Source of the DNA: an uncultured bacterium
GTDB lineage: Bacteria > Caldisericota > JANLFM01
Direction: 5' to 3'
Assembly (NCBI GenBank): GCA_964614945.1
Contig: CAZTNW010000003.1
Location: 72,838 to 136,837 of the forward strand
DNA length: 64,000 nucleotides
Shown here: positions 4,998 through 34,229 of the stretch, piece by piece
Layout: every line of letters starts with the position of its first letter
Numbering within the stretch: the first letter of the stretch is position 1
The notes under the pieces: generated by a model
What the model was told of the DNA's origin: nothing
Database searches by the model: none
Seen by the model: the letters and a program-made list of their open reading frames with translations, nothing else
Made by a program: the position numbers and the translations under genes

Positions 4998-5094
4998 AAT
5001 GACCGCGATCGACTCCCTCCCTGCTTATATATCTCCGTTTGATCGAGAAAAGAGGGCCTTAGCGTCGTTCAGCGGGTAGTCAGGCTGGGTTCGC

Positions 5095-6255
5095 CTAATT
5101 CATCTGCAGGCGACGGAAAAGCCAGGTACCAGCGGCGAAAAAAAGCACCGTCAATATGAGCAGGGCGGCTAACTCAAAAGCTATCCCGTTCAAGCCTACT
5201 CCAAGATTTAGTACTTTGTTAAGAGCCGTTACAGCATGGCTGGTCGGCAGAAAATCAAACAGTCGAATAGCACGCTCCCCGACATTGAACAGCGGCGGTG
5301 AGGGTACAGGGAAGACGGCACCGGATAAAAACAGTAGCAACAACAAAGGGAAATTGGCAATCACGGCAGCGCGTCCGACCGTACGGGAAAAACAGGCAGT
5401 GATCAATCCTGCCCCGATCGCCGCCGTGGCCGCCATGACACTGATAACGATTGCCAGGACTAAAGAACCAACATAATGATAGCCGAGCGTAATGGCCACT
5501 CCGAAGCTGAGTAATACCGATAACAAGCTAAAGCAACTGTACACCAGGCTTATCCCGCCCATCAGATCGAACGAGCTCATTCTGGTTAGCTTTAGCCGGT
5601 GCAGTGCACCGCTTTCAATCTCCCGTGAGACAGCGATAGCTACAGAAAATATAATCATAGTCAGTGCCGCTACCAGTAAACCGGGTACATAGTTATCAAA
5701 ATCCCGTCTTATAGTTGTGTCTCCAATAAATTCTTCCTGGAGGTTAAAGGGTATTTGCTGTCCTGTAGCCTCCACCACATAGTTTTCCAACTCTGAGACA
5801 ATGAATACGGCAGCTACTACGTAATATGGATGCCCTTGATCACCCATCACAACGGCAGAAGCTTCGGCTGACATTGTGCCGCCGTTATCGTGTACCCGCT
5901 GGATTTCCCGGGTATAACCGGCTGGGAAAATAACCACCGCTACGGCCTGGCGGTCCTTTAGTTTTGACTCGGCCACAGCCTGGGAGTCTAATATTTTAAC
6001 TCGAAGCACAGGTGTACCATCGGTATGTTTCAGGTCGACCAGACGACCAATCACTTCTTCACTGCAATGTTGTTCAATACCGTTTACCTGGTCGTTATTT
6101 ACCACCATTACATCCAGAGGAAGGGCAGCGCCGCTGCCCATGAATATCCAGTAGAGTATGATAAAAAGAGGCGCCAGGGATATGGACAGGATGAGATCCC
6201 ACCTGCTGCGCATCTGCTCTCTAAATGTTTTAACGCAAATCTGCCGCAGTTTCAT
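5095..6255 (-). CDS. ABC-2 family transporter permease
   Basis: 386 aa; N-terminal TM helix, large extracytoplasmic loop, C-terminal cluster of about 5 hydrophobic helices; 4-nt overlap with upstream ATPase gene. Confidence 0.8.
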   Translation of the reverse strand: MKLRQICVKTFREQMRSRWDLILSISLAPLFIILYWIFMGSGAALPLDVMVVNNDQVNGIEQHCSEEVIGRLVDLKHTDGTPVLRVKILDSQAVAESKLKDRQAVAVVIFPAGYTREIQRVHDNGGTMSAEASAVVMGDQGHPYYVVAAVFIVSELENYVVEATGQQIPFNLQEEFIGDTTIRRDFDNYVPGLLVAALTMIIFSVAIAVSREIESGALHRLKLTRMSSFDLMGGISLVYSCFSLLSVLLSFGVAITLGYHYVGSLVLAIVISVMAATAAIGAGLITACFSRTVGRAAVIANFPLLLLLFLSGAVFPVPSPPLFNVGERAIRLFDFLPTSHAVTALNKVLNLGVGLNGIAFELAALLILTVLFFAAGTWLFRRLQMN

Positions 6256-7211
6256 TCGCGTAATCTCCGACCGGTCAGGGCGATAAAGACATCTTCCAGT
6301 GTATTGCCGCGTAATCTGATATCGCCGTGTTTGATACCAATGTCGTTAATCCTCCGGGTGATAGCTGGTAGCAAATCGACAATTCCAAGTGCTCTCATTA
6401 CCAGTATATTGTTTTGCAGGGTAACATTATTAACAATGCTTTTGATTGCCCGGCAGGCGTTCTGCGACAGATCGCCGTTGTTCAAATCTATCTCCAGGAC
6501 ATCTCCCTCACCTAAATTACGCCTCAATGCATTGGGAGTATCCAGCGCCAGTAGAGCCCCGTGGTCTATAATAGCCACCCGGTCGGCCATGCGGTCTGCC
6601 TCATCCATATTATGGGTAGTCAGGATAACAGTGTGTTCTTTATTGGATTTAGCCCAATCCCGTACGTACTCGCGTACCAGCACCCGGCTTTGCGGGTCAA
6701 GCCCTGCCTCAGGTTCGTCAAGGATCAGCAACTTTGGATCATGCATCAACGCTAATGCCAGATTGAGTCGCCGCTGCATACCACCCGAAAGCGTTGCGGC
6801 TAGCTTACGGCGCTTTTCCGTAAGATGAAATATCGCCATCAGGTCTTCGGCGCGTTGCCGGCACATCTTTCGGGGCAGGTCATACATTTCCCCGATGAAG
6901 ACAAGCTGCTCCAGGCAGGTCTGTTTGGGCCAGATTATAATATTTTGCGGACATAGACCGATATCGCTTTTCATCGATTGTTCGAGCGGCTTATCATTAA
7001 AGAAAATGCTACCGCTATCCGGTTTGAGCAGGCCGCACAGCATTGAGATAGTCACTGTCTTTCCAGCACCATTGGGGCCAAGAAGAGCCAGGATTTCACC
7101 GCTTCTGATATCCAGGCTGAGTTCGTTGACTGCCGTGACGTCTCCGAAACGCTTGACCAGTCTTTCGGCTTTTAAAATACACGATACCTTGCCACTAGTT
7201 ATTGGCATCAC
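6252..7211 (-). CDS. ABC transporter ATP-binding protein
   Basis: Walker A GPNGAGKT, ABC signature LSGGMQRR, Walker B LLILDEP. Confidence 0.9.
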   Translation of the reverse strand: MMPITSGKVSCILKAERLVKRFGDVTAVNELSLDIRSGEILALLGPNGAGKTVTISMLCGLLKPDSGSIFFNDKPLEQSMKSDIGLCPQNIIIWPKQTCLEQLVFIGEMYDLPRKMCRQRAEDLMAIFHLTEKRRKLAATLSGGMQRRLNLALALMHDPKLLILDEPEAGLDPQSRVLVREYVRDWAKSNKEHTVILTTHNMDEADRMADRVAIIDHGALLALDTPNALRRNLGEGDVLEIDLNNGDLSQNACRAIKSIVNNVTLQNNILVMRALGIVDLLPAITRRINDIGIKHGDIRLRGNTLEDVFIALTGRRLRE

Positions 7212-7212
7212 T

Positions 7213-7917
7213 TCATCCCTTTAAAGCACTTTCAATAAAAGCCATAAGATTATCCAGAATACGTTCCCGGGCCATGTTTTCATCCGTAAGCTGATAATAC
7301 GTGTTTAAATGTGGCAGTAACTGTGCATCATAGACGGCAATGACCAGTGAATTTACCAAGCGAGCCATTGCCTCAAGGTCGATATCGGTGCGTATTTCAC
7401 CGCGTGATTGCGCCGCTATTAGAATGGATCTGGTCATATCCAACATTACTTGCGCTATGGGTCGTACTATTCTTTCCGTGAGAGCTGGCTCGCCTTGATA
7501 AGCGGCGCGGGTAAAATATCGAATATAACCCTGGTACTCCTTGTCCATTTCATCAGCACCCCGAAGATAGGCTCGCAAAGCATCGAACAGCGGCATTCCT
7601 GTCAAATAAGGTTTGAAATGGGTAAACGCCGCGACCATTTGCCTCGTAGTGATTTCAATGGCGAAGTCAATCAACCCCTGGCGATGGTTGAAATACTGAT
7701 AGAGGGAACCCACAGATACACCGGCTCGTCGCGCCACCTCCTTAATATTGATTAGAGCCGGGCCTTTAAGAGCGGCTTCTTCAAGGATGCTGTTAACGAT
7801 GGATTCACGCCGCGAAGGTTCAAGGCGGAAGAAAGTAGTGGTGATGATACAACTCTTTTGTAAATCGGCAAGTAAGTCTAAATTAAGAAAAGTATTTATC
7901 GATGGATATGAACTCAT
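7213..7917 (-). CDS. TetR/AcrR family transcriptional regulator
   Basis: 234 aa; N-terminal HTH INIKEVARRAGVSVGSLYQYFNHRQGL typical of TetR; directly upstream of and co-directional with the ABC exporter genes. Confidence 0.85.
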   Translation of the reverse strand: MSSYPSINTFLNLDLLADLQKSCIITTTFFRLEPSRRESIVNSILEEAALKGPALINIKEVARRAGVSVGSLYQYFNHRQGLIDFAIEITTRQMVAAFTHFKPYLTGMPLFDALRAYLRGADEMDKEYQGYIRYFTRAAYQGEPALTERIVRPIAQVMLDMTRSILIAAQSRGEIRTDIDLEAMARLVNSLVIAVYDAQLLPHLNTYYQLTDENMARERILDNLMAFIESALKG

Positions 7918-7946
7918 GGTTCATATAATATGAACCATGAGTTCAT
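7908..7946. promoter_or_regulatory. perfect 39-bp palindrome (two 19-bp arms around one central base), candidate TetR operator overlapping the TetR start codon
   Basis: ATGAACTCATGGTTCATAT-A-ATATGAACCATGAGTTCAT read directly; TetR ATG (7915-7917 on minus strand) lies inside the left arm. Confidence 0.6.
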
Positions 7947-8028
7947 AAGTCAAATAGGCTTTCTTTCTGATAAGACTCTCAGGTCATTCATGATTTATTG
8001 GAAGCAATACTTGGAACTTTCTGGAAGT

Positions 8029-8892
8029 CTACATTTTACAAGCGACAACGGCAAACTCTGTGCTCTCCGGGTCAAACGGCGAGCCCGCAACATCCGAGTA
8101 GAAACACTCCACCTTGAATCCGCATTCCAGGAATTCCTTCTCCAGGTCTTCCGGATTGAAATACTGAAGCCAGTTGTAAACAGTCCGGGTGAGATTAGCT
8201 TCTATGATAGTATACTTGTCAAGTATTATCTTTTCCTTTTCATACTTGAAAGTATTTAAAAATCCATAGTATTTATTCGCAGACCAGAAGTTATTTAAAA
8301 GGTTGGTTTCATACATCGCAGTTTCTTTCCGCTGCTCGAATGCTTTCAGTGAATATACATCCAGAAGAACAAACCCTCCGGGTTTTAAAAAACTGTGGAA
8401 TTTAGACAACATTTTATTTCTTTGAGATGGGCTGAGCGCGCAGAAGTCACACATAATCATTAGGATTAGTTCAAACCGGTCATCGGTTTCATATTCCAGG
8501 TAGTTCTGATTGAGATACTTGATGTGTAGTTTCTCTTTACTCGCTACCTCTTGTGCGTACTCAATTGACCTTTTTGAAAAGTCTATTCCGGTTACCACTG
8601 CCTGCTTTCTAGCCAGTCTAGTTGTATATAGTCCTGGGCCGCAACCAAAATCAGCAATCTTTGTTCCAGCACCGATGTTGAATCGAGAAACTATCCAATC
8701 TACCGACTTTTCAATGAATGTTGTCTTACGTGATGAGATATCAATTTCGCCATTCAGGTGGAAGGACAACATCTGTTTTGAGGTGTGATCATCAGTCCAG
8801 AGATCACTTGCTGTATAGAACTCAAATGGTTTAGGACGCGTGTTTATTTTTTCAAGCTCTTCAAACATATGTCTCCATCTTAATACACTCAA
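8029..8892 (-). CDS. class I SAM-dependent methyltransferase
   Basis: 287 aa; motif I DFGCGPGLYT; gene is visibly AT-richer than its neighbours. Confidence 0.85.
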   Translation of the reverse strand: MSVLRWRHMFEELEKINTRPKPFEFYTASDLWTDDHTSKQMLSFHLNGEIDISSRKTTFIEKSVDWIVSRFNIGAGTKIADFGCGPGLYTTRLARKQAVVTGIDFSKRSIEYAQEVASKEKLHIKYLNQNYLEYETDDRFELILMIMCDFCALSPSQRNKMLSKFHSFLKPGGFVLLDVYSLKAFEQRKETAMYETNLLNNFWSANKYYGFLNTFKYEKEKIILDKYTIIEANLTRTVYNWLQYFNPEDLEKEFLECGFKVECFYSDVAGSPFDPESTEFAVVACKM

Positions 8893-9095
8893 TTGTGTCT
8901 GTGAAATATCTTAACAAAGTGGCTGCTACTTTCCATTCACTTAAACTGATACTTTGTCCACCAAGCGACTGTCTTTACTTACGGAAAAGCTAATCTCTGG
9001 CTGCAGTGTAATTCCACGGCGTGTTATTCCTTGTATAACTTTCGAATCACCGGATTGCACCTAATAGTGGATAAAGCCGGCATATACAAAGCCTT

Positions 9096-9399
9096 TTAGC
9101 GGCTGCTTCCAAATTCCGGGGCATTGGTGGTGATTTCGATGGCGAAGTCAAGCAAACCCTGGCGATGGTTGAAATACTGGTAGAGTAAACTCACAGATAC
9201 ACCGGCCTGTCGCGCCACTTCTTTTATATTGATCATGTCAGCCCCTTCAGGGCAGGCTTCTTCGATGATGCTGGCAACGATGGCTTCCCGCCGCGAAACC
9301 TTAAGCCAAATGAAAGTGGTGGTTATAATCCCACGCTGTTGCAGGTCAGTGAGCAAGACCGGGGTCAACAAAAGTGTTGCTTGCGGGATATGAATTCAT
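9096..9399 (-). pseudogene. truncated, frameshifted paralog of the TetR regulator 5' region (HTH domain only)
   Basis: ORF 9096..9371 translation (...IITTTFIWLKVSRREAIVASIIEE...INIKEVARQAGVSVSLLYQYFNHRQGLLDFAIEITT) aligns to residues about 20-90 of the intact TetR; ancestral ATG at 9397-9399 is out of frame and runs into a stop; homology ends near 9128. Confidence 0.7.
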
Positions 9400-9430
9400 G
9401 ATTCATATCATATGAACCTTAGGTTTATAT
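9390..9430. promoter_or_regulatory. degenerate copy of the TetR operator palindrome
   Basis: ATGAATTCATGATTCATATCATATGAACC... matches the left arm of the 7908-7946 palindrome; right arm diverged. Confidence 0.45.
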
Positions 9431-9446
9431 GTCGATTTCACTATTA

Positions 9447-10178
9447 TTATGTGTACCTTTTCCTTTTGAAATCATTGAGTCCGATTCCTGTAAATAAAAT
9501 TCCGGCCAGGGAAAATCCTAATTTTCCGATAATCACTGCTGTTGGAACGATAAAATCCGGTTCGCCGGATGAGCCTACAGGCAGGGTGAGCGGAGCAGTC
9601 CGAAAGAAAGAATCACCCAGCAGATCTAAGGCATAGGGCAAACTAGCTTTCCCCATAAGCAGCAGGAGCAGCATCAGCGCATAAAGCAACGCAGGGTGTA
9701 TCCGTCCAGCCACCATACCAATACCCGTAACAAACAGCATGGACGGCAAGAGGGTCATGATGATCGGATTAACAAAAGCGCCGAAATCGTAAAACCGAAA
9801 GGTATCTGCATAGAACGCAAAGCTGATGCCGATGGTGACACCGGAAATCAGGAGAAAACCGGTCGCTATGGCTAGACATTTAACCGCACCGTATTGCACC
9901 GGATCAATTGGGGTTGCCATGGCCAACACCCGCACCCGCTTTTCTTTTCTGGAATACAGATGGGTGATGAAAAATAGCAGCGTTATAAGGAGCAGCGGTA
10001 GAACTAAAGCCAAGAAAGCGCCATAGCTCCAACTGGAAAATGGTGCGGTATAGGAAACACCTAAAATAATTTCGCCATCCAGGAGCTTCCAGCTGTAGAA
10101 AGCTATGACCAGCAGCAAAACAAGAAAGAATTTATTAAAAATGAGCCTTCTTAGCGCATAGCGAAAGAGTTTACTCAA
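9447..10178 (-). CDS. polytopic membrane protein, probable second permease component
   Basis: 243 aa, about 6 hydrophobic segments; 8-nt overlap with upstream permease-peptidase gene. Confidence 0.6.
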   Translation of the reverse strand: MSKLFRYALRRLIFNKFFLVLLLVIAFYSWKLLDGEIILGVSYTAPFSSWSYGAFLALVLPLLLITLLFFITHLYSRKEKRVRVLAMATPIDPVQYGAVKCLAIATGFLLISGVTIGISFAFYADTFRFYDFGAFVNPIIMTLLPSMLFVTGIGMVAGRIHPALLYALMLLLLLMGKASLPYALDLLGDSFFRTAPLTLPVGSSGEPDFIVPTAVIIGKLGFSLAGILFTGIGLNDFKRKRYT

Positions 10179-12348
10179 CGGAAATCGCCTCCTTTGTCAG
10201 CCCGCAGGCATTCAGAAAATCATTGTAGGTAATGTAGGGCGGCATCTCAGTTCCGCCGTTCTCGTAAAGCTGCGCCAGGACGTTGTCCAGCTTGTCCTCG
10301 CCGCCCATCAATTCGGCTGCCTTCAGGATATTGAGCGGCATGATCTGATACATTTGTGCGCTCTCTTCCTGAGCTCTGATTCTTGCTGTGTATTTCTCGG
10401 GCAGTATATCCATATATTCCGGATGGCGGCGGTAGAAGGAACGGTTCAACGCGTCCAGACCGGCTTTCCACTGATCCAGATAGTATTTCTGGACGTAGGC
10501 CTCACCAAATTTTTCCTTCATCATGCGGTAGGTGGTGTAGACGGTGAGTCCCTCGGAGGACCACGGCTTTTCATCCAAGACGCTTGCGCTCAGCCCCCAC
10601 CATTGATGGATGATTTCATGTGCCAGCACTTCGCTGCTGGTAGCGCCCTCCAGGGAATTGGGATTGTTAAGATGAACGTCGCTGAAAAAGCTCTCTCCCA
10701 TTACACTGAAATTACCGTATGCACCCCCGCCCATTAAATAGGCGGAGGTCTGAATAATTTTGAGAGGGAGATCCTGGCCATAAGGCAGTGGGCCATAATG
10801 CGCGGTACAGTATTCCACCACTTCTGCCATCACCTGCTTTGCGTCCGCGCGCCGCATAGCCTCCTCGTGTTTTTTGCTGTAATAGAATTCAATATGCATT
10901 CCCCCCGCCTCGATGACCTCCATGACATAATCTCCCGCGAAGAGGTTGATCTGGGTTCCTTTGTCGACGGCCAGCCATGTTTTTGTCCCATCCGCGTTGT
11001 CTGAGACCAGTTTGGCGGTATTGCCGGTTGGGATGAGCGTCAGGTTGCTGGGTAGGGTAATGGTACCGATAATCGGGATGTCCTCCGCTTTGGTTCGCAT
11101 GGAGAGCCGCGGCGCAAGGGCGGTACCGCCCAGGTTCACATAGCGGTCACCGACCTCATCGCCCCAGACATCCATTCTGTTCATGGACCATTCCTGTGGG
11201 AATCCGCCGTATTCGACAGCAAGCCTAAGCTCCGGCTCTGCAGGCAGCATGATCGAGACTTCCTTATTGTTATTTGTGTCGTTGTTCAAATCGGTGAACG
11301 GGATGGCTTCGCCATTGACTGTGACCGAGCTAATTTCATATCCGGGATTAACCCGGAAACGGCATTCCTGCGGTTCGGTATTGTCATTTTCGATTTCATA
11401 GACCGCCCTTCCCTGCAGTGTGCCTTTTTTCGTGTTGAGGATTAGATCCACCTTCGTGCTTTTCCAAAACATGTTATCACTATAGATACCCTCAGTTTGC
11501 ACATAGTCCATCGGGCTATGATCGATGTATGGCTGGTAGACGTAGGCAAAGCAACCGCTGCATACCATTAGGGCAGCCAGAAGCGAGAGGCAGATTTTGC
11601 GTGCATTCAAACAAAGAGAGCTAAGAATTCCCCTGCCGTAACGCCGGATACAAAGAAGGGAGAGCAAGTAGCATCCCGACAGCACTGTCAGCCAGAACAG
11701 GCGGTTATAGGTTGCCATGCGGAGGATGCGGACATTGCTGAAATCGTCCGAATAGATGGGGATCAGGGGGTTGACCCAGCGAAGGATGAAATCATCGGAG
11801 AACCACTGGCTCATGCTAAGCAGGGCGAACACGACAAACAAGACGAAGCTGAGATCGACACGGTAGGTGACATGATATAAGGCCGCCGCCGCGAGGATGC
11901 CAAAAAACAAGCTGGGCAGCATCAGCACTAGAAAGCTTGCTATGTACAATTCTGGCACAAAAATATTCTTCATCTCCAGCATGGTATACGGAAGATAAAC
12001 CGTCATGGCCAGCAGTACAGCAACCAGCGCAGGAGCCATTAGTGCCAGTACTCTTGCGCCGTTTAAGGTCAGCGGCGACACGATGGTGTCAGTCAGGGTG
12101 ACGGTCTCGCTTCGATGTACGCGGTCTAATTCATAGAGAGTAAGCAGAGCAAAAAAAACCGCTCCCAAAAGCGCTCCTGTCATAGCAGGATTGGCAATCA
12201 GCGCGGACGCTTTTGTTAAGGTAGGGACCGGTACGTACCACGAATAACCTCCTAGAGGCGCACAGGCGGTCAGCACAAGCGCGAGCCAGGCGCTTTTTGT
12301 TCGGAAGATACGCTTCAGCTCCACAAGAAAAAAAGAGAAGAAGCTCAT
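10171..12348 (-). CDS. ABC transporter permease fused to an M1-family (gluzincin) zinc metallopeptidase domain
   Basis: 725 aa; N-terminal about 260 aa with about 6 TM helices; C-terminal domain carries HEIIHQWWG...WSSEG (HExxHxW...WxxEG M1 zinc signature); ATGA overlap with ATPase gene. Confidence 0.7.
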   Translation of the reverse strand: MSFFSFFLVELKRIFRTKSAWLALVLTACAPLGGYSWYVPVPTLTKASALIANPAMTGALLGAVFFALLTLYELDRVHRSETVTLTDTIVSPLTLNGARVLALMAPALVAVLLAMTVYLPYTMLEMKNIFVPELYIASFLVLMLPSLFFGILAAAALYHVTYRVDLSFVLFVVFALLSMSQWFSDDFILRWVNPLIPIYSDDFSNVRILRMATYNRLFWLTVLSGCYLLSLLCIRRYGRGILSSLCLNARKICLSLLAALMVCSGCFAYVYQPYIDHSPMDYVQTEGIYSDNMFWKSTKVDLILNTKKGTLQGRAVYEIENDNTEPQECRFRVNPGYEISSVTVNGEAIPFTDLNNDTNNNKEVSIMLPAEPELRLAVEYGGFPQEWSMNRMDVWGDEVGDRYVNLGGTALAPRLSMRTKAEDIPIIGTITLPSNLTLIPTGNTAKLVSDNADGTKTWLAVDKGTQINLFAGDYVMEVIEAGGMHIEFYYSKKHEEAMRRADAKQVMAEVVEYCTAHYGPLPYGQDLPLKIIQTSAYLMGGGAYGNFSVMGESFFSDVHLNNPNSLEGATSSEVLAHEIIHQWWGLSASVLDEKPWSSEGLTVYTTYRMMKEKFGEAYVQKYYLDQWKAGLDALNRSFYRRHPEYMDILPEKYTARIRAQEESAQMYQIMPLNILKAAELMGGEDKLDNVLAQLYENGGTEMPPYITYNDFLNACGLTKEAISVE

Positions 12349-13208
12349 CGTTCCGCCTCTTTTGCGATGAGGTAAAGGTATGCATCCTCCAAAGTCGGTT
12401 CCGTCGGCTGCGCGAAGTGAGGAAGATTATCCGCCAGAATCCGGCAGAAGATCCCCTGCGCGGCGTTAACGCGGGCAGTCACCTGATATTGTCTTTCCCG
12501 CGTCTCGCCGATTTGTTCCTCGAATATACCGACATGGCCGCGCGCCTTGAGGATCAATTCGGATGGCTTGCCGTCGAACAGGACAGCCCCGTGATTGATC
12601 ACGATCAGGCGGTTGCAGACCGATTGTACATCTTCAATGATATGAGTGGAGAGCAATACGGTCTTATTTTGCGCGCTGCGTGAGAATAGATTGCGGAAGC
12701 CCAGTCGTTCCTCAGGATCGAGTCCAGCCGTGGGCTCATCAAATATCAACAGTTCCGGATCGCCTAACAGCGCCTGTGCAATGCCCACGCGTTGTTTCTG
12801 GCCACCGGACAGTGTGCCGATGCGGGCTTTTCTTTTTTCATTGAGATTGGTCTCCTCGATAACTTTTAAAATGGCGGACTTGCTGTTTTTTACTCCCTTA
12901 AGGGCTGTCATATAGTCGAGGAATTGGTAAACGGTCAGCTCCTCATAAAGTCCGAAGCTCTGCGGCAGATACCCCAACCTGGATTTAAAATTCTTCTCAA
13001 CCTTCACCAGCAGCTGCCCATCCACCAGAATCCGACCGGAGGTGGGGAGCAGCTCTGCTACCAGCAGTTTCATCAGCGTGCTTTTGCCTGCGCCATTAGG
13101 GCCCAAAAGCCCGGTAAAACTGGGACTTTCCAGCGAGAGCCCCACATCTTTCAGCGCCTCCTTTCCTGTTCTATAGGTCATATTTAGATCCTGTATTTCG
13201 ATTTTCAA
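12345..13208 (-). CDS. ABC transporter ATP-binding protein
   Basis: Walker A GPNGAGKST, signature LSGGQKQR, Walker B LLIFDEP. Confidence 0.9.
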   Translation of the reverse strand: MKIEIQDLNMTYRTGKEALKDVGLSLESPSFTGLLGPNGAGKSTLMKLLVAELLPTSGRILVDGQLLVKVEKNFKSRLGYLPQSFGLYEELTVYQFLDYMTALKGVKNSKSAILKVIEETNLNEKRKARIGTLSGGQKQRVGIAQALLGDPELLIFDEPTAGLDPEERLGFRNLFSRSAQNKTVLLSTHIIEDVQSVCNRLIVINHGAVLFDGKPSELILKARGHVGIFEEQIGETRERQYQVTARVNAAQGIFCRILADNLPHFAQPTEPTLEDAYLYLIAKEAER

Positions 13209-13330
13209 TGTTTTTCACCTTCCATACGTATTGCTGCTCTTAAGACAAACCAAGTACACCTATAGCAAAGTAATTTGGAGCACAAATGAGATAAACTTGT
13301 TTTTTGTGTGAAGAGGAAAAATGGAGTCTT

Positions 13331-14833
13331 TTAGGTCAGCGCAAAGGTGAACTGTACCCCTGCTGCTGTGTTCTCGATTCTGTATTCCGCTTTATGAAGA
13401 TCCAAAATCATCTTGACGATGTAAAGCCCTAAGCCGCTTCCGCCTGTGCCGCGATTGCGTGACTGCTCTACGCGGTAGAAGGCGTTGAACAGCCTGGAAA
13501 TGGCTTCATCCGGGATATGAACACCAGTGTTCTCGATGGTAAAGCACACCACTTTATCGCATCGATGCGCTTTCACGAAAATACTGCTGCCCTCCGGCGA
13601 GTAATGTGCAGCATTGCTGATTAAGTTGCTCAACGCTCTGAGCAGCAGCATTTCATCTCCTTCAACGAACAGATTCTCCTCTATCTCAGTGGATACGGAG
13701 AGATTCTTCAGGGTGAAAAGATCCTGGTGCGCGGACAGGCAGTGGCTGGCTAGCGCACCGAGATCGAGCCGTTTCAGGCGCAGAGCAAAGTTAGGGGATT
13801 CCATGCGGGAAACAGTCAGGAGTTCCTGTACCAATCCCTCCATTCTGTCGGTGACCTTCAGTGATCGTCCCAGATATTTTCCGTGGTCGCGGTAAGCCCC
13901 CACATTGTTGATCATTCCTTCGAGCTGTCCTTTTACGACGGTGATCGGGGTTTTCAGTTCGTGAGACACCGCCGCAAAAAAGTCGAGGCGTTTGCGCTCG
14001 AGCTCCCGTTTCAGATCGATATCTGCCTGCAGAGATGCATTGGCCGTTTTCAGCTCATCCAGCGCGGCACTGAGCTTTTCCGCAAGGTTATTGAGGCTGG
14101 TGGCCAGCACACCAACCTCATCTGAGCGCTTTTCCTTACAGCGCCAGTGAAATTCCATTTCGGACATTCTCTTGGAGATCCGGCTGATATTCACAATGGG
14201 ACGGGTAACATAAAGCGAATAGAGCCACGACCCCAGAAATGACATCAGCAGAATCGCCACGACCAGCAACGGCAGGATGCGGACCAGCGCCTGCGCCGCC
14301 TGGTTAACCGGCTGCATGCTGGCTAAAACCACCAACGTATAGGGCGCGTTTGAGCCAGCAAAAGAAAATGGATAAGACTGTGATGTTGCCACAGAGACAT
14401 AAGAGGCATCGCCGAGGCTCATGTCATCGGTTGTAATCACAGGAGCGTTGAAGTAGTAATCAGAAGTATCGGTGCCTGTGCTTTGGTCAGCCCTGCCTTT
14501 TCCGTATTTCTGGATTTCTATATCTTCCGCCCAAGAAGAAGCATGTCCGGGGATATCCACCACTTTCTCCTGGGCGTCCAGAATCACGACATCCGCATTG
14601 TTTTTTACTACAAATCGGTTGAATAACTCGCCGGAATCCTCTAATTTGGTGCTTGCCAACTGCTCCGTCAATTTAATTGCATTTCTCTCCAGATCGCGGC
14701 TCAGTTCCGCAGAAAAGGTTTTGGGCATAAAGCAGGCAATGAAGATAAAAGTCAGCAAGCAGATGATAATCAGCAGCATGCTGGTGATCAGAAATACCTT
14801 TAGGGTCAGGCTATTTTTGATTCGGCGGATCAA
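13331..14833 (-). CDS. sensor histidine kinase with extracytoplasmic sensor domain between two TM helices
   Basis: 500 aa; two hydrophobic segments, H-box AVSHELKTP, C-terminal HATPase motifs (NLISNA, GTGGSGLGL). Confidence 0.9.
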   Translation of the reverse strand: MIRRIKNSLTLKVFLITSMLLIIICLLTFIFIACFMPKTFSAELSRDLERNAIKLTEQLASTKLEDSGELFNRFVVKNNADVVILDAQEKVVDIPGHASSWAEDIEIQKYGKGRADQSTGTDTSDYYFNAPVITTDDMSLGDASYVSVATSQSYPFSFAGSNAPYTLVVLASMQPVNQAAQALVRILPLLVVAILLMSFLGSWLYSLYVTRPIVNISRISKRMSEMEFHWRCKEKRSDEVGVLATSLNNLAEKLSAALDELKTANASLQADIDLKRELERKRLDFFAAVSHELKTPITVVKGQLEGMINNVGAYRDHGKYLGRSLKVTDRMEGLVQELLTVSRMESPNFALRLKRLDLGALASHCLSAHQDLFTLKNLSVSTEIEENLFVEGDEMLLLRALSNLISNAAHYSPEGSSIFVKAHRCDKVVCFTIENTGVHIPDEAISRLFNAFYRVEQSRNRGTGGSGLGLYIVKMILDLHKAEYRIENTAAGVQFTFALT

Positions 14834-15482
14834 TCCTATACCCTACCCCTCTGATTGTCTCAATGTAATCCACCCCTAATTTTTTCCGCAGGTTTTTGAT
14901 ATGCGTATCCACAACGCGCTCATCCCCGAGAAAATCATGCTTCCACAGCTTATTTAACAGCATCTGGCGGGTCAGCACTTTACCGATATGGGTCAGTAGC
15001 TCGCGTAGCAGTTCGAATTCGCGCTGGGTCAGGTCGACTGCTGTACCACAGATATAAGTCTTGTATCTATCAATATCCAGAACCAGATCCTGATAAACCA
15101 ATCGGTTTTGCTCGCCGGTCACAGAGGGTCGACGCAGGACTGCCGCAATCTTTTTCAGCAAAATTGGCATAGAGAAAGGTTTGATGATGTAGTCATCCAC
15201 TTCCAGATCGAAACCTTTCAATTGATTTTCTTCACTATCCAGCGCGGTCAGCATCACGATTGGCACGTCGGATTCCTTGCGGATCAATTCGCAGACGCCA
15301 TAGCCATCAATCTTCGGCAGCATGATGTCCAATAGCACCAAATCGAACGAACCCTTGGAAAACTGTGAAATGCCTTCCACACCATCGCCAGCCAAAACGA
15401 CCTCATATCCTCCGTCTTTCAGAAAATTCTCCAGCAGCTCCTGAATGTCAACTTCATCCTCAATCACTAAAATTTTCTTCAC
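14811..15482 (-). CDS. OmpR-family response regulator
   Basis: 223 aa; receiver domain (ILVIEDE, LLDIMLP, phospho-acceptor Asp context) and winged-helix C-terminal (GYRI); overlaps HK start. Confidence 0.9.
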   Translation of the reverse strand: MKKILVIEDEVDIQELLENFLKDGGYEVVLAGDGVEGISQFSKGSFDLVLLDIMLPKIDGYGVCELIRKESDVPIVMLTALDSEENQLKGFDLEVDDYIIKPFSMPILLKKIAAVLRRPSVTGEQNRLVYQDLVLDIDRYKTYICGTAVDLTQREFELLRELLTHIGKVLTRQMLLNKLWKHDFLGDERVVDTHIKNLRKKLGVDYIETIRGVGYRIDPPNQK

Positions 15483-15734
15483 ACTATCACCTCAGGTATT
15501 CTACACTTATCCAGTTTCAAGGCCCACCGAGGGCGTGATGTTGTAAGTAGCCAGGGCGAGCTATCGAAAGTCAGTGCTGGAGAAATACCTCTCATAACAC
15601 TGCCAGATGTCAGCAGTGAGTCCCCCCTATAAGCGAAACTCTTTCAATCACCTTCCCCCTGTGCCTCATCTAAGATAGATGGGCAATGTCCTCTTCGATA
15701 CTGCATCCTGCGGTTAGCAACCGCGAATTCTTCT

Positions 15735-16085
15735 TCTCCCGGGTCGAATGTCGAGTCAGCAACATCGGAGTAGAAACTTGCTACTTGGAATCTGCCCCTC
15801 AAAAGCTCCTTTCTAGCTCCTCCAGGCTAAAATACTGCAACCAGTTAACGGTATGTGTGTAACTAGCTTCAATGATCATATTTATCAAGTACTACTCTTT
15901 CTTCTTCGTACTTGAACGTATCAAGAAACCTATAGTACTTTTGCGGGTGGGAGAAGTCCAGTCAACCTAGACTACGCACTCGACCGATCTATCAACAAAT
16001 GCAGCATTACGCGATGAGATCTCGATCTTTCCATTCAGGTGGCAAGAGAGCATCTGCCTGGAAGTATGCTCATCCGTCCATAGTG
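15735..16085 (-). pseudogene. decayed relic of the SAM methyltransferase gene, with a large internal deletion
   Basis: DNA aligns by eye to 8046-8285 and 8690-8795 of the intact gene (e.g. CATCGGAGTAGAAAC vs CATCCGAGTAGAAAC; TTTCCATTCAGGTGGCAAGAGAGCATCTG vs TTCGCCATTCAGGTGGAAGGACAACATCTG); no ORF >=60 aa in the track across 15483-16189. Confidence 0.65.
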
Positions 16086-16189
16086 GCCCTTTTTCCTTTC
16101 TGCTGTCCCATCACAATGTTGTGCTGAGCATAAGCGCTGCGGCTGACTCAGGTCGAAGCGGTTTCACCTCATTCCTGTTCTTGCCCTGC

Positions 16190-16921
16190 TCACTCGCTGC
16201 CCTCATCTCCTTCATGCGGTAAGGTTGAGTCTAAAGGCATTTCGCTGGCTCTCAATTTAGACTCATCGTCGGCGGAGAAGATTCCGCACGACCGCTCGAG
16301 CATCTCCAGGCGCTTCCTTAGTTCTTCCTGCTCTTTCATGAGATAACTCATAGCTTCGGCTACAGGGTCGGGGAGCCTTCCATGCTCAAGGTCCATAAAG
16401 TGCTTGCGTTTATCTTCTACGATTCTTCCTGGAACTCCGACCACTGTGGCTGCAGGGGGGACCGATTTCAGGACCACAGAACAGGCTCCGATTTTAGCAT
16501 CGTCTCCAATGGTAACGGCACCCAGGACAACTGCCCCGGCGCCAATGACTACATTGTTGCCAATCGTGGGGTGGCGTTTTCCTTTTCTCAAGCTTGTTCC
16601 TCCCAGGACAGCGCCCTGATAAATCAGGACATCATCTCCAATCTCGGTAGTCTCCCCGATAACTACGCCAGCTCCGTGGTCGATGAAGAAACGCCTCCCG
16701 ATTTTTGCCCCGGGATGAATTTCAATGCCAGTAAAAAAGCGAGCTAAATGAGAGATAAAGCGCGCCAGAAAAAACAACTTCTTCTGCCAGAGAAAGTGGG
16801 CCAGACGATGGAACCAGAGGGCGTGAACTCCCGGATAACACATTAAAATCTCCAGGGTGCCTCTGGCAGCAGGGTCTCTGGCGAATACTGTCTGGATGTC
16901 TTCTTTCAGAGTTTTAAGCAT
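16190..16921 (-). CDS. cysE: serine O-acetyltransferase with C-terminal extension
   Basis: 243 aa; left-handed beta-helix hexapeptide repeats ([39 protein letters not shown]). Confidence 0.85.
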
Positions 16922-17107
16922 ATATGTTCTCCGTGTGGGAATTCCTCTCTCTTAACCAATCTGAGCTTCAAAGGTCTTGAAAAAGCCAAGTGGAGAGATA
17001 GCGCTCACCTGTATCAGGAAGGATAGCCGTAATAAGTTTCCCCGTGTTTTCTGGCCTTCGGGCTACCTCTAAGGCCGCCCAGACCGCAGCTCCTGAAGAT
17101 ATTCCAG

Positions 17108-17959
17108 CTAATATTCCTTCTTCTCTGGCCAACCTCCTGGCCATGAGTCCGGCGTCGTCGTTGGCGACCCTGATAACTTCATCGAGCAGACCACCTCCAG
17201 CACCTCGGGAATAAAACCGGCCCCAATTCCCTGAATCCTGTGTGTGCCTGGCTTCCCTCCGGAGAGGACGGGGGAACTTTCAGGCTCGACAGCGATGGCT
17301 TTGAATCCCTTTTTCCTCTCTTTCAAAACCTCCGCCGCTCCAGTAATCGTACCTCCAGTTCCCACCCCCGCCACTAAAATATCCACCTTTCCCTCGGTAT
17401 CCCTCCATATCTCCTCAGCAGTAGTCAACCTGTGAATTTCAGGGTTGGCAGGATTCTTAAACTGCTGAAGCAGGAGAGAGTCAGGATTCTCGGCCGCCAG
17501 TTGCTCTGCTTTCCTCACTGCTCCAGATATCCCTTCCAGTCCGGGAGTCAGAACCAGCTCCGCTCCGAACATCGAAAGGAGCTGTCTTCTCTCGAGGGAC
17601 ATCGTGTCAGGCATGGTCAGGATGAGCCTGTATCCTCTGGCAGCGCAGACAGAAGCCAGGGCGATACCTGTATTCCCGCTCGTGGGTTCGACAAGAACCG
17701 TATTTTTATTGATCAACCCTCTTTCTTCGGCATCGGCGATCATGGAAACCCCAATCCTGTCTTTGCCGCTGCCAGTAGGATTGAATGCCTCCAACTTGGC
17801 CACAACAGTTGCCCGCAGCCCCTCTGTTATCCTGTTTAACCTGACGAGCGGAGTGTTCCCTATCAATTCCGCCACATCTCTGGCAATACCCCTGGCTAAC
17901 CTCGGTATGCTCAGGGCTTTATAATGAAGGATGTCCAATTCTTTAGCTTTCTCTCTCAT
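17108..17959 (-). CDS. cysK: cysteine synthase (CysK/CysM, PLP-dependent), interrupted by an apparent frameshift; homologous 3' end continues in another frame to 16968
   Basis: [27 protein letters not shown] motifs; after IPEVLE the ORF frame gives a non-homologous tail, while another frame reads [46 protein letters not shown]... to a stop at 16968-16970. Confidence 0.8.
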
Positions 17960-17985: not shown

Positions 17986-18849
17986 TCACAATATGTCACT
18001 TAAGAAAATCCCCCTCCTTTCAATCTTCCCTTTATCCTCGTCAGTTATCGTAGCGCCTCTCTCCCTGTGACGAGCTGACCCTCCGGATGTGCATTCCTTT
18101 ATGAATTTTTCTACTCCCGAGATGCCTGTTTTCTCGTAGAGGTGAATAATATGGCTCCCCACGACAGCGATGTCGGCCAGTCCTTCCAGCTGTCGAACCT
18201 GCACCGCGGAGGATATGCCAAAACCAGCGGCAACTGGCAGCTTGGACCTCTCTCGGATTTCTTTTATAAAATTAATCCCCTCTTCACCTATTCTTTTGAC
18301 TTCACCGGTAATTCCTACCCTTAAGGTAATGTAGATGAAACCCTTTGATATGCGCAAAATTTCCCCGAGCCTTCCTTTCTTAGGGCCGGGAGAAACAACA
18401 TTGATCGGATAAATTCCCACCCGGCGAGCATAGTCGAAATATCCCTCGACCCTTTCGTCGAAGGTCAAATCGGGAATGATGAGCCCGCTGAGGCCGGAGT
18501 CCCTAGACCTCCTCACGAATTTCTCAAGGCCCATCTGGAAAGGAATATTGGCGTAAGTCATGAAGAGGAGAGGAATATTAATCCTCTTTTTCAAACGTTC
18601 GGCAAGCTGAAAACATTGGCAGGGAGTGATACCATGGTCGAGAGCTATCTGGTTAGCTGCCATGATAGTCCGGCCGTCTGCCAGAGGATCGGAAAAAGGG
18701 ATCTGAATCTCGATAAGGTCGACTCCGTACTCTGCCATTGCCAGGGCAATCTCGCCGGATTTTTCGAGGTCTGGATATCCGGCCACAATATGAGTCATGA
18801 GTTTCAATTCCTTCTTCCCGGAGAAAATATGGTCGATAGGATTATCCAC
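17986..18849 (-). CDS. trpA: tryptophan synthase alpha subunit
   Basis: 287 aa; conserved EIQIPFSDPLADGRTI block; follows trpB with overlap. Confidence 0.9.
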   Translation of the reverse strand: MDNPIDHIFSGKKELKLMTHIVAGYPDLEKSGEIALAMAEYGVDLIEIQIPFSDPLADGRTIMAANQIALDHGITPCQCFQLAERLKKRINIPLLFMTYANIPFQMGLEKFVRRSRDSGLSGLIIPDLTFDERVEGYFDYARRVGIYPINVVSPGPKKGRLGEILRISKGFIYITLRVGITGEVKRIGEEGINFIKEIRERSKLPVAAGFGISSAVQVRQLEGLADIAVVGSHIIHLYEKTGISGVEKFIKECTSGGSARHRERGATITDEDKGKIERRGIFLSDIL

Positions 18850-20074
18850 TTTCCGCCTCTTCCCTTAAGAACCGCGCCCAGTTCTCGCGGTCGATCTTCT
18901 TTGCTGTAATAAAAATGTCCTTATCACCCCTCCCGGAGATATTAACGACAATGAGGGTGTCCGGGCCATACTCCCTCGCTTTCCTAAGGGCCCAGGAAAG
19001 TGCGTGTGCGGATTCCAGGGCAGGAATGATCCCTTCCAGGCGGGCCAGCGTCCTGTAGCCGACCATGGCTTCTTCGTCGCTGACTTTTTCAAACATGATG
19101 GTGCCTGCGTCATGAAGGAAGGCAAGCTCAGGCCCGATCCCCGGATAATCCAGGCCAGCGCTTATGGAGTGTGTTGGAGCAAGCTGTCCGTATCTGTCCT
19201 GGATAAAATAGGATTTATAGCCCTGAGCTATTCCGGCCCGGCCGTGCTTGCTGAATCGCAGGGCGTTTTCGCCAAAACCGTTACCTTTCCCTCCCGCTTC
19301 GACAGCTACAAACTGGATGCGCTTTTCCCTCAGAAAGGGATAAAAAAACCCCATGGCATTTGACCCTCCTCCGCAGCAGGCGATCATTACATCGGGGAGC
19401 CTGCCCTCGATTTCGAGCATCTGTTTTTTCACTTCTTTTCCGATGATGGATTGAAAATCTCGCACAATAACCGGGTAGGGATGAGGACCGACAACCGAGC
19501 CCAGGAGGTAATGGGTGTCCCTGAGATTTTCAATCCAGTGCTTCAAAGCCATATTAACTGCATCCTTGAGGGTTTTTGCTCCCTCCTTAACAGGGACGAC
19601 ATCCGCCCCCAGGAGCCTCATAGAGAAGACATTGGGATGCTGCCTTTTCATGTCGACCTCTCCCATGAAAATGGTACATCCGAGGCCAAACTTGGCACAG
19701 ACAGAGGCTGTGGCCAGCCCGTGTTGACCCGCTCCGGTCTCGGCGACAATTTTCTTTTTGCCCATTTTCCTGGCCAGGAGGGCCTGGCCGATGACATTAT
19801 TTATCTTATGCGCTCCGGTATGGGCGAGGCCCTCCAGCTTTAAATAAATCCTGCCTCCTTTATTCGCCGAAGTCAGGTTCTCGGCAAAATAAAGCGGAGT
19901 AGGCCTTCCGCAGTAGTTCCGGAGAAGAAAAGCAAGTTCTTTTTTGAAAGCTCTTTCTTTCTTACAGAAAAAATAAGCCTCCTCTAGTTCATCAAGGGCG
20001 GGGATGAGCATTTCGGGTACGAAGCGGCCTCCGAAGTCGCCGAAATATCTGCAGAATTTTTTAACCTTTTCCAT
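18842..20074 (-). CDS. trpB: tryptophan synthase beta subunit
   Basis: 410 aa; PLP-enzyme motifs (LEGLAHTGAHKINN, GAGQHG, CCGGGSNAMG). Confidence 0.95.
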   Translation of the reverse strand: MEKVKKFCRYFGDFGGRFVPEMLIPALDELEEAYFFCKKERAFKKELAFLLRNYCGRPTPLYFAENLTSANKGGRIYLKLEGLAHTGAHKINNVIGQALLARKMGKKKIVAETGAGQHGLATASVCAKFGLGCTIFMGEVDMKRQHPNVFSMRLLGADVVPVKEGAKTLKDAVNMALKHWIENLRDTHYLLGSVVGPHPYPVIVRDFQSIIGKEVKKQMLEIEGRLPDVMIACCGGGSNAMGFFYPFLREKRIQFVAVEAGGKGNGFGENALRFSKHGRAGIAQGYKSYFIQDRYGQLAPTHSISAGLDYPGIGPELAFLHDAGTIMFEKVSDEEAMVGYRTLARLEGIIPALESAHALSWALRKAREYGPDTLIVVNISGRGDKDIFITAKKIDRENWARFLREEAESG

Positions 20075-20693
20075 TTTCCCCTCTTATTCTTCTGATAATG
20101 GAAAAAAACCTGGTCATCTTCTCAATGCTTTTTTTTCTGGCATGCTCTTCCAGAAAACTTGAAGCGTCAACTCCATATGGTCTCAGGCAGGCAACTTCTT
20201 CAACATTTTCAGAGCTTAGGCCTCCGGCGATGATGATCCGGAATTCTCTCCTGACGGCCTCTTGGGCGATTGCCCAGTCGAAGGGCACAGAGGTTCCGCC
20301 TTGCTTACCTTCTACATATGTATCGAGGAGAAATGTCTCACAGTCGTAGGAATTCATTTGCTCAAGTGATTCCTGGCTCCTGACCCGGATAACTTTCCAG
20401 AAAGGCAGGCCGAGTTTCCGGCAGTAATCCGGCGATTCATCGCCATGAAGCTGGACGATATCGAGCCCGGTCTCATAATATATCCTTCTAATGCCTTCTC
20501 GGGTTTCGTTAACAAAAACCCCGACCTTTTTTACAGGCAAAGAAAATTGTCTGGACAGATTTTTAACGAAAGGAGGGGAAACGTAACGTGGGGATAATCG
20601 GTAAAAGATAAAGCCTGCGAAATCAGCGCCAAATGAAGCGACGGCCAGGTAATCCTCGAGATTGGTGATCCCACAGATCTTCACTTTAAGCAT
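20061..20693 (-). CDS. trpF: phosphoribosylanthranilate isomerase
   Basis: 210 aa; KICGIT N-terminus, VQLHGDE block. Confidence 0.85.
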   Translation of the reverse strand: MLKVKICGITNLEDYLAVASFGADFAGFIFYRLSPRYVSPPFVKNLSRQFSLPVKKVGVFVNETREGIRRIYYETGLDIVQLHGDESPDYCRKLGLPFWKVIRVRSQESLEQMNSYDCETFLLDTYVEGKQGGTSVPFDWAIAQEAVRREFRIIIAGGLSSENVEEVACLRPYGVDASSFLEEHARKKSIEKMTRFFSIIRRIRGENGKG

Positions 20694-33935: not shown

Positions 33936-34229
33936 ATGGTGAAAGACTTTGACAAGGGAATTGTAAAGACAGACCCCTCCCGCAAGGTCGGGAAGGCCAC
34001 CATGCGCGTAATTATCTTCACCGAGCGCCACAGGGTAGAAGGTCGCGTACACGCGATCCCGGGCTCCCGTCTGATAGACTTTTTGAATGCGCCCGCTGAA
34101 TTTATCCCTTTGACCGACGCCGTCATTTTCAATTTAGATGATGAAAAGGAGCTCGGTCGTCAGCCCTTCGTGGCTGTGCGCAAACATTCCATCAACCTGC
34201 TCGTGGAAGCTGGCCAACCGGGGCTGTAG
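33936..34229 (+). CDS. hypothetical small protein
   Basis: 97-aa ORF with balanced composition and weak AGGA RBS; 3' end overlaps the tRNA-Ala start by 10 nt, so the reading frame is uncertain. Confidence 0.35.
   Translation: MVKDFDKGIVKTDPSRKVGKATMRVIIFTERHRVEGRVHAIPGSRLIDFLNAPAEFIPLTDAVIFNLDDEKELGRQPFVAVRKHSINLLVEAGQPGL

Follow-up and report, generated by a model that had tools for sequence, protein, structure and literature searches.

The locus described here extends from position 5095 to position 16083 of the window, the whole 64-kb stretch of DNA that was analysed, and all of its listed parts lie on the (-) strand (Table 1). Read along that strand, it begins with the relic of a methyltransferase (MTase) gene, hereafter M', and continues with a five-gene two-component/ABC/M1 module, the stub of a tetR gene (T'), an intact MTase gene (M) and an intact tetR gene (T), which is followed by the genes of an ABC-2 exporter. 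The first-pass annotation had described a TetR-operator-methyltransferase unit, but M lies upstream of tetR and is co-directional with it, not divergent from it, and the supposed operator is the tetR promoter itself. The coordinates that it gave for the two relics were accurate to within ~30 nt.

Table 1. Genes, relics, and control regions of the locus, in order of window coordinates.
Feature	Position	Strand	Remarks
ABC-2 permease	5095-6255	-	conserved partner of this TetR clade
DrrA-like ABC ATPase	6252-7211	-	conserved partner of this TetR clade
Intact TetR-family repressor (T), 234 aa	7213-7917	-	PF00440
Intact tetR promoter with dual operator	7907-7953	-	TTGACT, 17-nt spacer, TATTAT
Orphan 84-nt spacer, right part of low-GC insert	7952-8035	-	GC 0.35, without terminator
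M module: intact low-GC MTase gene and 92 nt upstream	8036-8960	-	CDS 8868-8029
Orphan 166 nt, left part of low-GC insert	8961-9126	-	no homology, RNA family, or significant fold
T', tetR stub, codons 1-91 (HTH domain)	9127-9399	-	+1 frameshift near codon 11
Relic tetR promoter with dual operator	9389-9435	-	TCGACA, 17-nt spacer, TATGAT
243-aa polytopic membrane protein, last module gene	9447-10178	-	probably second permease subunit
725-aa protein with ~6-7 N-terminal TM segments and C-terminal M1-like metallopeptidase domain	10171-12348	-	
Module ABC transporter ATPase	12345-13208	-	domain scans
Sensor histidine kinase, HAMP-HisKA-HATPase	13331-14833	-	extracytoplasmic loop of ~150 aa
OmpR-type response regulator, first module gene	14811-15482	-	domain scans
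220 nt upstream of response-regulator gene	15483-15703	-	presumably module promoter region
M', dead relic of class I SAM methyltransferase	15704-16083	-	aa 23-60 at 16083-15970; aa 193-279 at 15958-15704

The intact repressor carries an N-terminal TetR HTH domain (E 1.9e-7, 31.2 bits versus a cutoff of 24), and its promoter sits within a perfect 20+1+20 palindrome that consists of two ATGAAC-N5-GTTCAT sites. The same layout of dual site and promoter is found at four other loci (L004, L008, L105, and L104). From this architecture, TetR is predicted to be an autoregulated repressor that acts on an operator overlapping its own promoter, and the position of the tetR ATG (7917) in the centre of operator site 2 would imply a leaderless mRNA. 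The natural unit, promoter/operator-tetR-ABC-ABC2 with ABC proteins of 319 and 386 aa, occurs without an MTase gene in four of five homolog contexts, and none of the other TetR-homolog contexts examined has an MTase gene immediately before the tetR promoter. No NCBIfam equivalog reached the cutoff for this exporter unit. It resembles autoregulated TetR systems with DrrAB-type ABC-2 exporters in its TetR_N HTH, its tetR-ABC-ABC2 order, and its two 6-N5-6 palindromes, which are placed 22 nt apart in the -35/-10 spacer and over the start site; it differs from them in that the start codon lies at the centre of operator 2.

The five genes between M' and T' form a conserved, self-contained module that recurs in Bacillota, and the same five genes are found as a unit in Tissierella carlieri and on two other contigs, in unrelated neighbourhoods. 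The 725-aa permease gives weak matches to ABC-2 permeases and to M1 peptidases and has no FtsX domain; of 58 homologs, 55 retain the HEXXH...E motif of its M1-like domain. Two-component-regulated ABC detoxification modules of Bacillota include the BceRS-BceAB and LnrJK-LnrLMN types, the former with an FtsX-type BceB permease that has a large extracellular domain and with an intramembrane-sensing histidine kinase. Like these, the module combines an OmpR-type response regulator and a histidine kinase with an ABC transporter in one transferable block. Its permease, however, is not FtsX/BceB-like, an ABC-2-like membrane part being fused to an M1-type zinc peptidase domain; it has a second membrane subunit, of 243 aa, and its kinase, with a loop of ~150 aa and a HAMP domain, is not an intramembrane sensor. 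The GC content of the module is 0.501, versus a window mean of 0.513, and the z-scores of its genes range from -1.5 to +0.2. It is thus not compositionally foreign and need not have been inserted. The fragments that flank it belong to two different genes and are not short direct repeats of the att type, and the 220 nt upstream of the response-regulator gene have no homology to the MTase-tetR spacer. The idea that the tetR operon and the M1 module are generally linked was also considered and rejected, co-occurrence being limited to L101, one of the four other contexts.

BLASTN of positions 7100-9000 against the window shows that the two relics proposed by the first-pass annotation exist, on the same strand and in the same order. 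Positions 7646-7951 match 9127-9433 with 76.3% identity over 308 nt (E 1.2e-57), and 8046-8274 and 8690-8802 match 15718-15940 and 15971-16083 with 70.4% (E 1e-20) and 72.6% (E 4.9e-12) identity, respectively. Self-BLAST of the whole window (E<1e-6) revealed no repeats besides these two pairs. The tetR relic retains the promoter, both operator sites, and tetR codons 1-91, and is frameshifted as had been noted, since a +1 insertion near codon 11 leads to a stop after 17 codons. The open reading frame at 9096-9371 (91 aa) is the shifted HTH frame of T' and should not be named a TetR gene. Homology between T' and T stops abruptly at 9127. The relic promoter, with its 17-nt spacer, matches the sigma-70 consensus at 10 of 12 positions and keeps two near-consensus TetR sites, site 1' (ATAAAC-N5-GTTCAT) within the promoter spacer and site 2' (ATGAAT-N5-ATTCAT) around the former ATG at 9399; RNA folding of the relic operator gave nothing significant. 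The MTase relic does have the large internal deletion that had been reported, ~133 core codons (aa 61-192, the whole SAM-binding fold) being gone. It has also lost codons 1-22 and the stop codon, and its C-terminal part bears two frameshifts and a one-codon deletion. The stretch 15704-16083 is a pseudogene.

M had been described as AT-richer than the rest of the region, and its GC content (0.407, versus 0.50 for the block) is indeed the lowest among 52 genes (z = -3.2). The segment that carries it, 7952-9126 (1,175 nt, GC 0.406), is the lowest in the window and is directly flanked by the T'/T direct repeats; a GC content this low is reached by just 0.4% of windows of that size, all of them overlapping it. 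Over 8036-8960, M is 89% identical at the nucleotide level to a gene of another organism (L089), which adjoins uvrC, has no tetR neighbour, and is also low in GC (0.40, versus 0.55 for the adjacent uvrC). Upstream of M are an RBS (GGAG) and a promoter-like TTCACA-17-TAAGAT. When the MTase was used as a query, the best match in plasmids was 45% at the amino acid level, and no match was found in viral contigs. Neither a terminator scan nor RNA folding gave anything significant for the two orphan spacers, and Smith-Waterman alignments of the junction and spacer pieces with all candidate partners, including the flanks of M' and T', all gave z < 1 versus shuffles. Along M-T-ABC-ABC2 the composition has no sharp breakpoint, the third-position GC change-point being weak, with a support interval of 6912-8620. 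The relics are weakly GC-richer than the intact copies (86 versus 62 sites, p = 0.058 in a paired test). Most likely, M is foreign and 7952-9126 is the foreign-looking DNA of the locus.

Both relics had been taken for decayed copies of the neighbouring genes, which holds for T' and not for M'. At third codon positions T and T' are sisters, with a difference of 0.33 versus 0.44-0.57 to four outgroups (bootstrap 0.88). Polarised changes by codon position are uniform on the T' branch (9/6/9) and amount to 5/1/11 on the T branch, these branch-specific counts being small (72 codons compared; Fisher test of branch by position class, p = 0.12). T' thus looks like a neutrally decaying partial duplicate of the ancestor of the neighbouring tetR. 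M' is 61.2% identical to M, no closer than the family in general (median, 62.0%; bootstrap CI for the difference between the two values, -0.07 to +0.05). Of 17 M-derived residues M' carries 3, against a chance expectation of 1.8, and at 12 it has the family consensus. In the tree, ((M,L089),M'), M pairs with L089, from which it differs by 0.16-0.20 at third positions; M and M' differ by 0.52, a deeper divergence than that of T' from T (Fisher p = 0.015). Changes on the M' branch and its stem are not uniform over codon positions (22/18/45, chi-square p = 0.0006), indicating that M' was under selection for most of its divergence. Judged by these comparisons, M' is not a decayed copy of M and belongs to a separate lineage. 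An initial interpretation, drawn from a pooled codon-position bias and a star-like pattern at the protein level, had both relics derive from a separately evolved functional cassette. Branch-polarised analysis of the DNA proved it wrong for T', whose star pattern is due to accelerated change on its own branch, and it stands for M'.

The absence of a transposase or integrase, noted at first reading, was borne out by Pfam and NCBIfam scans, which found no transposase, integrase, or recombinase domain in the genes of 5095-16921. There is no tRNA gene near the locus, the sole one in the window being at 34220, and Rfam searches of 4500-17500 returned chance-level matches only. Among 80 cysE loci retrieved for synteny (best CysE, 72%), none had the MTase, TetR, or module genes. 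A TetR scan of species-representative genomes found no relative, and the best match in a metagenome scan with the T' ORF, aimed at an intact relative of the relic, was 68%. No papers citing the source sequencing runs were found. The homologies, lesions, composition, relationships of T' and M', conservation of the module, and promoter/operator layout are shown, whereas the order of events and their mechanism are inferred, the representative-genome, cysE-locus, and metagenome scans having turned up no close relative in the ancestral state.

With moderate confidence, we consider it most likely that the relics mark the arrival of a foreign MTase gene, followed by the decay of the resident one. The ancestral order would have been cysE, a functional resident MTase gene (M'), the five-gene module, and promoter/operator-tetR-ABC-ABC2. 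A ~1.2-kb low-GC segment (7952-9126) with the xenologous M would then have been inserted at tetR codon 91, accompanied by a 306-nt direct duplication of the promoter, the operators, and codons 1-91. The downstream copy would have remained attached to the rest of tetR, leaving the operon expressed and autoregulated, and the upstream copy, T', would have become a dead stub subject to neutral drift. The duplication may have formed in situ or been carried on the incoming DNA, in the latter case by Campbell-type integration or homology-facilitated illegitimate recombination. Once M had arrived, the resident M' is proposed to have become redundant and then to have been destroyed by deletions and frameshifts, which would constitute xenologous displacement. 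The module would merely sit between M' and T', its insertion not being required. Of the past duplication and insertion in an accessory region that the first-pass annotation had suggested, the duplication and the accessory region hold up; insertion of the module, which has background GC, is not supported. Similarly, the relics said to bracket the block are colinear, true homologs, but the T'/T repeats that bracket the MTase segment offer the more direct reading.

A few observations are at odds with such an insertion of M. A target duplication of 306 nt is unusually long, and the locus lacks any recombinase or mobility gene. The incoming gene would by coincidence be homologous to, and co-oriented with, a resident gene 6.8 kb away. 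The low third-position GC of the intact tetR, the lack of a sharp compositional breakpoint, and the p value obtained for relic GC also speak against it.

The colinear order is more simply explained by a single tandem duplication of MTase, operator, and the 5' part of tetR. In that scenario, the two-component/ABC/M1 block would later have been inserted between the upstream MTase copy and the operator, the upstream copies would have decayed neutrally, and, for the data to fit, the downstream MTase gene would also have to have been replaced subsequently by a foreign allele. One event would then cover the M'...T'-M-T order and the end of T' at codon 91, the neutral behaviour of T' as a copy of the ancestor of T would be accounted for, and the adjacency of MTase and tetR promoter, absent elsewhere and occurring twice here, would suggest common descent. 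We nevertheless hold this history to be unlikely. M' has no affinity to M, M groups with a gene situated in another context, and the unequal third-position divergences of the two pairs, together with the selection on M', do not fit a joint duplication of both units. The homology that it predicts at the junctions and spacers is missing as well: the 84-nt spacer between M and the operator matches neither the flank of M' nor that of the relic operator, and the regions upstream of M and M' do not match each other (z < 1 in all cases). The composition of the block is that of the background, mobility genes are lacking, and three major events would be required, two of them horizontal transfers.

Replacement of a whole cassette by xenologous DNA is a further candidate, in which a related but diverged donor supplied M-promoter/operator-tetR, possibly with ABC-ABC2, through homologous recombination at the downstream end and illegitimate recombination at codon 91 of the resident tetR. 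T' and M' would then be native leftovers of the 5' side, and the 5' end of the intact tetR would be donor DNA. Consistent with this, the intact tetR is the second-lowest-GC gene, with a third-position GC (z = -2.1) as low as that of M, and the third-position GC of T' (0.58) is near the host mean (0.574). At the protein level T resembles homologs elsewhere (78%) more closely than it does T' (73%), and there is documentation of homology-facilitated illegitimate recombination leaving orphaned remnants behind (PMC5361080, PMC3240628). On the other hand, synonymous sites place T and T' as sisters, change on the T' branch looks like neutral drift and not like selection, and no compositional breakpoint is seen within or after tetR. 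In addition, M is found elsewhere without tetR and members of the tetR clade without M, and no donor with the M-tetR adjacency is known; on balance, cassette replacement seems improbable. The idea that the contig is a chimera fusing two strain variants of the locus draws on the fact that the source is represented by no more than two sequencing runs and a single NCBI record. The arrangement is, however, 100% identical between independent assemblies of the two runs, across 11-15 kb, the copies (70-76% identical) are too diverged to confuse an assembler, and the deletions and frameshifts of the relics are typical of pseudogenes, which makes an assembly artefact extremely improbable.

The favoured history, arrival of M and decay of M', can be compared with documented processes. 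Xenologous gene displacement, in which the resident homolog decays, is a concept of comparative genomics that is discussed, for example, in PMC1274311 and PMC9425974. The locus resembles it in that an acquired homolog, low in GC and with its nearest relative elsewhere, is found a few kb from a broken resident gene. It differs in that M landed 6.8 kb downstream of the resident gene and not at its position, and displacement is here inferred from decay. Homology-facilitated illegitimate recombination and Campbell-type insertion-duplication leave orphaned gene fragments (PMC3240628), as exemplified by T6SS effector displacement in Vibrio cholerae (PMC5361080). As in those cases, a partial duplicate of the target gene flanks the foreign DNA, an intact copy is accompanied by an orphan stub, and there is no integrase. 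Unlike in those cases, what was duplicated is the 5' end along with promoter and operator, and the event is old (24% divergence) and seen in one genome.

The best model, held with the same moderate confidence, is that the locus is a mosaic scar produced by ordinary bacterial genome history rather than an active system, and nothing in it points to a new mechanism. It is chiefly of use as a worked example and as a warning. Relics that seemingly bracket an island have unlike histories, one being a neutral partial duplicate and the other a displaced resident homolog, and the truly foreign DNA is a small MTase segment rather than the large operon block. Codon-position statistics that are pooled can give a false picture if outgroups are not used to assign the substitutions to branches.

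The control region of T' may have some bearing on the present function of M. Given that the relic promoter and its TetR sites are retained, and that a terminator scan found no terminator between them and the acquired MTase gene, there is a slim chance that this promoter still fires, under repression by the intact TetR, and drives the foreign MTase gene. The same region could also pass read-through from the two-component-controlled transporter to the MTase gene. If the relic promoter does fire, the MTase would join the ligand-responsive regulon of the ABC-2 exporter, a case of regulatory capture by the control region of a pseudogene, and chemical modification and efflux of one compound would be coupled.

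The region from 16921 to 5095 carries genes on the minus strand only, in an arrangement that is 100% identical between the assemblies of two independent runs. Domains were assigned with Pfam and NCBIfam. The cysK gene (16968-17959, minus strand), which adjoins the relics, is broken by a 1-nt frameshift: its 283-aa open reading frame (17959-17108) stops out of frame past '...GFIPEVLE', and the conserved C-terminus (LLDEVIRV...STWLFQDL) runs on in a different frame to 16968. Since independent assemblies agree fully on this sequence, cysK is probably a true pseudogene.

Features of the locus, in the direction of transcription, with the coordinates of homologous loci on other contigs (L numbers)
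Feature	Position	Strand	Remarks or homologous loci
cysE	16921-16190	minus	First in the direction of transcription
M', relic of a methyltransferase (MTase) gene	16083-15704	minus	After cysE
Five-gene module: response regulator (RR), histidine kinase (HK), ABC ATPase, permease with a fused M1-like peptidase domain (725 aa), 243-aa membrane protein	15482-9447	minus	L102 5856-11917; L107 5672-11896; L106 766-6787
Relic promoter/operator and tetR stub T'	9435-9127	minus	
Orphan nucleotides, 166	Between T' and M	minus	
M, intact MTase (class I SAM methyltransferase, 279 aa)	CDS 8868-8029	minus	L089 192-1061
Orphan nucleotides, 84	Between M and the tetR promoter/operator	minus	
tetR promoter/operator, start codon in site 2	7953-7907	minus	L004 ~4265-4310; L008 ~78-123; L105 ~1900-1946; L104 ~5895-5941
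T, intact tetR	7917-7213	minus	
ABC ATPase and ABC-2 permease	7211-5095	minus	

The similarities of both relics to the TetR/MTase region, as claimed in the first-pass annotation, were all confirmed by BLASTN, between 7646-7951 and 9127-9433 for tetR (76.3%, E 1e-57), and between 8046-8274 and 15718-15940 (70%, E 1e-20) and 8690-8802 and 15971-16083 (73%, E 5e-12) for the MTase. Besides these two pairs, no internal repeats were found in the 64-kb window. T' retains codons 1-91 and carries the reported frameshift, a single +1 insertion near codon 11. M' has two frameshifts and has lost codons 1-22, its stop codon and the entire Rossmann core (~133 codons), the large internal deletion described earlier. 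Gene callers have annotated the T' stub in public assemblies as a 91-aa "protein" (9096-9371, minus strand) with a weak TetR_N match; this frame, shifted and with a TTG start lacking a ribosome-binding site, is best regarded as a piece of a pseudogene. In agreement with the annotation, Pfam/NCBIfam scans of the genes in 5095-16921 revealed no integrase or transposase domain, and no tRNA lies close to the locus.

That the relics are decayed copies of their neighbors holds in part for T' but not for M'. At the protein level, neither looked closer to its neighbor than to homologs elsewhere, and the pooled differences are biased to third codon positions. Changes were assigned to the T and T' branches using the DNA of four outgroups. 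Third positions differ by 33% between T and T', versus 44-57% between each and the outgroups, and 88% of bootstraps group the two as sisters. On the T' branch, changes are distributed over codon positions in a neutral-like fashion (9/6/9), and those on the T branch (5/1/11) indicate purifying selection. Sisterhood and the neutral-like branch thus make T' plausibly a partial duplicate, in decay, of the ancestor of T. The idea that both relics are remnants of a separately evolved cassette was ruled out for T' by the branch assignment.

In the case of M', only 3 of 17 M-derived residues are present, with the family consensus at 12, and P0002/L089 has 8 of the 17. The tree is ((M,L089),M'), third-position differences being 0.16-0.20 between M and L089 versus 0.52 between M and M'. 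Changes on the M' plus stem branch depart strongly from uniformity across codon positions (22/18/45, p = 0.0006), and the split between M' and M lies deeper than that between T' and T (p = 0.015). Altogether, this argues that M' was a separate, functional MTase during most of its evolution; as judged from these comparisons, it is not a copy of M.

Two ATGAAC-N5-GTTCAT sites, spaced by 22 nt, make up the perfect 20+1+20 palindrome. The homologous loci L004, L008, L105 and L104 have the same layout as this one, TTGACA, site 1 within the 17-nt spacer, TATAAT and site 2, with the tetR ATG at the center of site 2, which identifies the palindrome as the autoregulated promoter of tetR. An operator common to tetR and the MTase was rejected on the same grounds. 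Members of this TetR clade place their start codon within the 5 central nucleotides of site 2, 7 nt past the -10 box, as is conserved in five loci. The tetR mRNA is probably leaderless, with a predicted start at the codon inside site 2. The natural unit of the clade is tetR-ABC(319 aa)-ABC2(386 aa), which four of the five contexts have, and this MTase precedes it in none of the homolog contexts. The relic promoter still matches the sigma-70 consensus at 10 of 12 positions. The relic operator has changed at 7 of 41 positions, about the same rate as T' overall (~24%), and thus there is no sign of selection keeping it. In site 2' (9390-9406), both half-sites have changed symmetrically (ATGAAT-N5-ATTCAT vs ATGAAC-N5-GTTCAT); a paired change of this kind has a chance of roughly 3% and may be fortuitous or a remnant of earlier co-evolution with the repressor.

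The AT-richness claimed for M was borne out, as it has the lowest GC of 52 genes (0.407, z = -3.2). The segment 7952-9126, directly flanked by the T'/T repeats, has the lowest GC (0.406) among the 1,175-nt stretches of the window. The low-GC foreign DNA is thus the M segment instead of the presumed island, whose GC (0.501) equals background. M is 89% nt identical to L089 over 8036-8960; there the MTase adjoins uvrC and is also low-GC (0.40 vs 0.55 for uvrC). In each of its two different host contexts, the gene is lower in GC than the surroundings. Conservation is high in this very large family, which has at least 7,999 matches at E <= 1e-20, the best 120 of which are 75-88% identical and include Planctomycetota/Sedimentisphaerales proteins. 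Such cross-phylum conservation suggests frequent transfer. No NCBIfam model reached cutoff for the MTase, and in the PDB it is closest to a UbiG-like O-methyltransferase (E 3e-21).

The module encodes an OmpR-type RR, an HK, an ABC ATPase and membrane proteins of ~725 and ~243 aa, for which no Pfam/NCBIfam model reached cutoff. Of 58 homologs, 55 retain the M1-type HEXXH...E motif of the former. All five genes recur together as a unit in Tissierella carlieri (71/51/70/54/53% identity) and on two further contigs, with unrelated surroundings, and named homologs belong to Bacillota in every case. By these comparisons, the module is a conserved unit, mainly in Bacillota. It has background GC and recurs as a unit, and there is no evidence here for its proposed insertion between the relics. 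On the Tissierella-like JGI contig L103, Tn7-like tnsA/tnsB (18747-20196) lie ~7 kb downstream of the module; the NCBI contig L102, identical in other respects, lacks them. A metagenome contig of 63% GC (L101, 4962-11905) has a homologous tetR (46%)-ABC (56%)-ABC2 (41%) operon with the ABC-M1-permease-membrane trio (72/61/53%) following directly downstream; RR/HK are missing. Both transporter systems are thus neighbors in a second, unrelated genome; this adjacency was not seen in three other contexts.

A two-step history accounts for the locus most economically. A low-GC segment of ~1.2 kb with M would have been inserted at codon 91 of tetR, accompanied by a 306-nt duplication (promoter, operators and the 5' part of the coding sequence) that either arose in situ or came with the incoming DNA. 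Campbell-type integration and homology-facilitated illegitimate recombination are routes of this kind (PMC3240628, PMC5361080). The exporter operon would stay expressed only if the downstream copy kept a complete promoter, which would account for the start of the duplication at the -35 box. The resident M', made redundant, would then have decayed. The first-pass annotation favored a tandem duplication of M, operator and tetR 5' part followed by insertion of the island, which would explain the colinear order in one step but is unlikely: the M'/M relationships speak against it, as do the unequal divergence of the T/T' and M/M' pairs and the spacers and junctions devoid of homology. Since no close relative was found in the collections searched, we infer the order of events in the two-step history.

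No terminators were found between the module, M and tetR-exporter units. The features are real, but the locus is an ordinary mosaic scar. As for present-day function, we infer that the module is a two-component-regulated ABC transporter with a conserved HEXXH...E zinc-peptidase domain, that M is an MTase served by a promoter-like site and a ribosome-binding site of its own, and that the tetR operon is a TetR-autoregulated DrrAB-like exporter.
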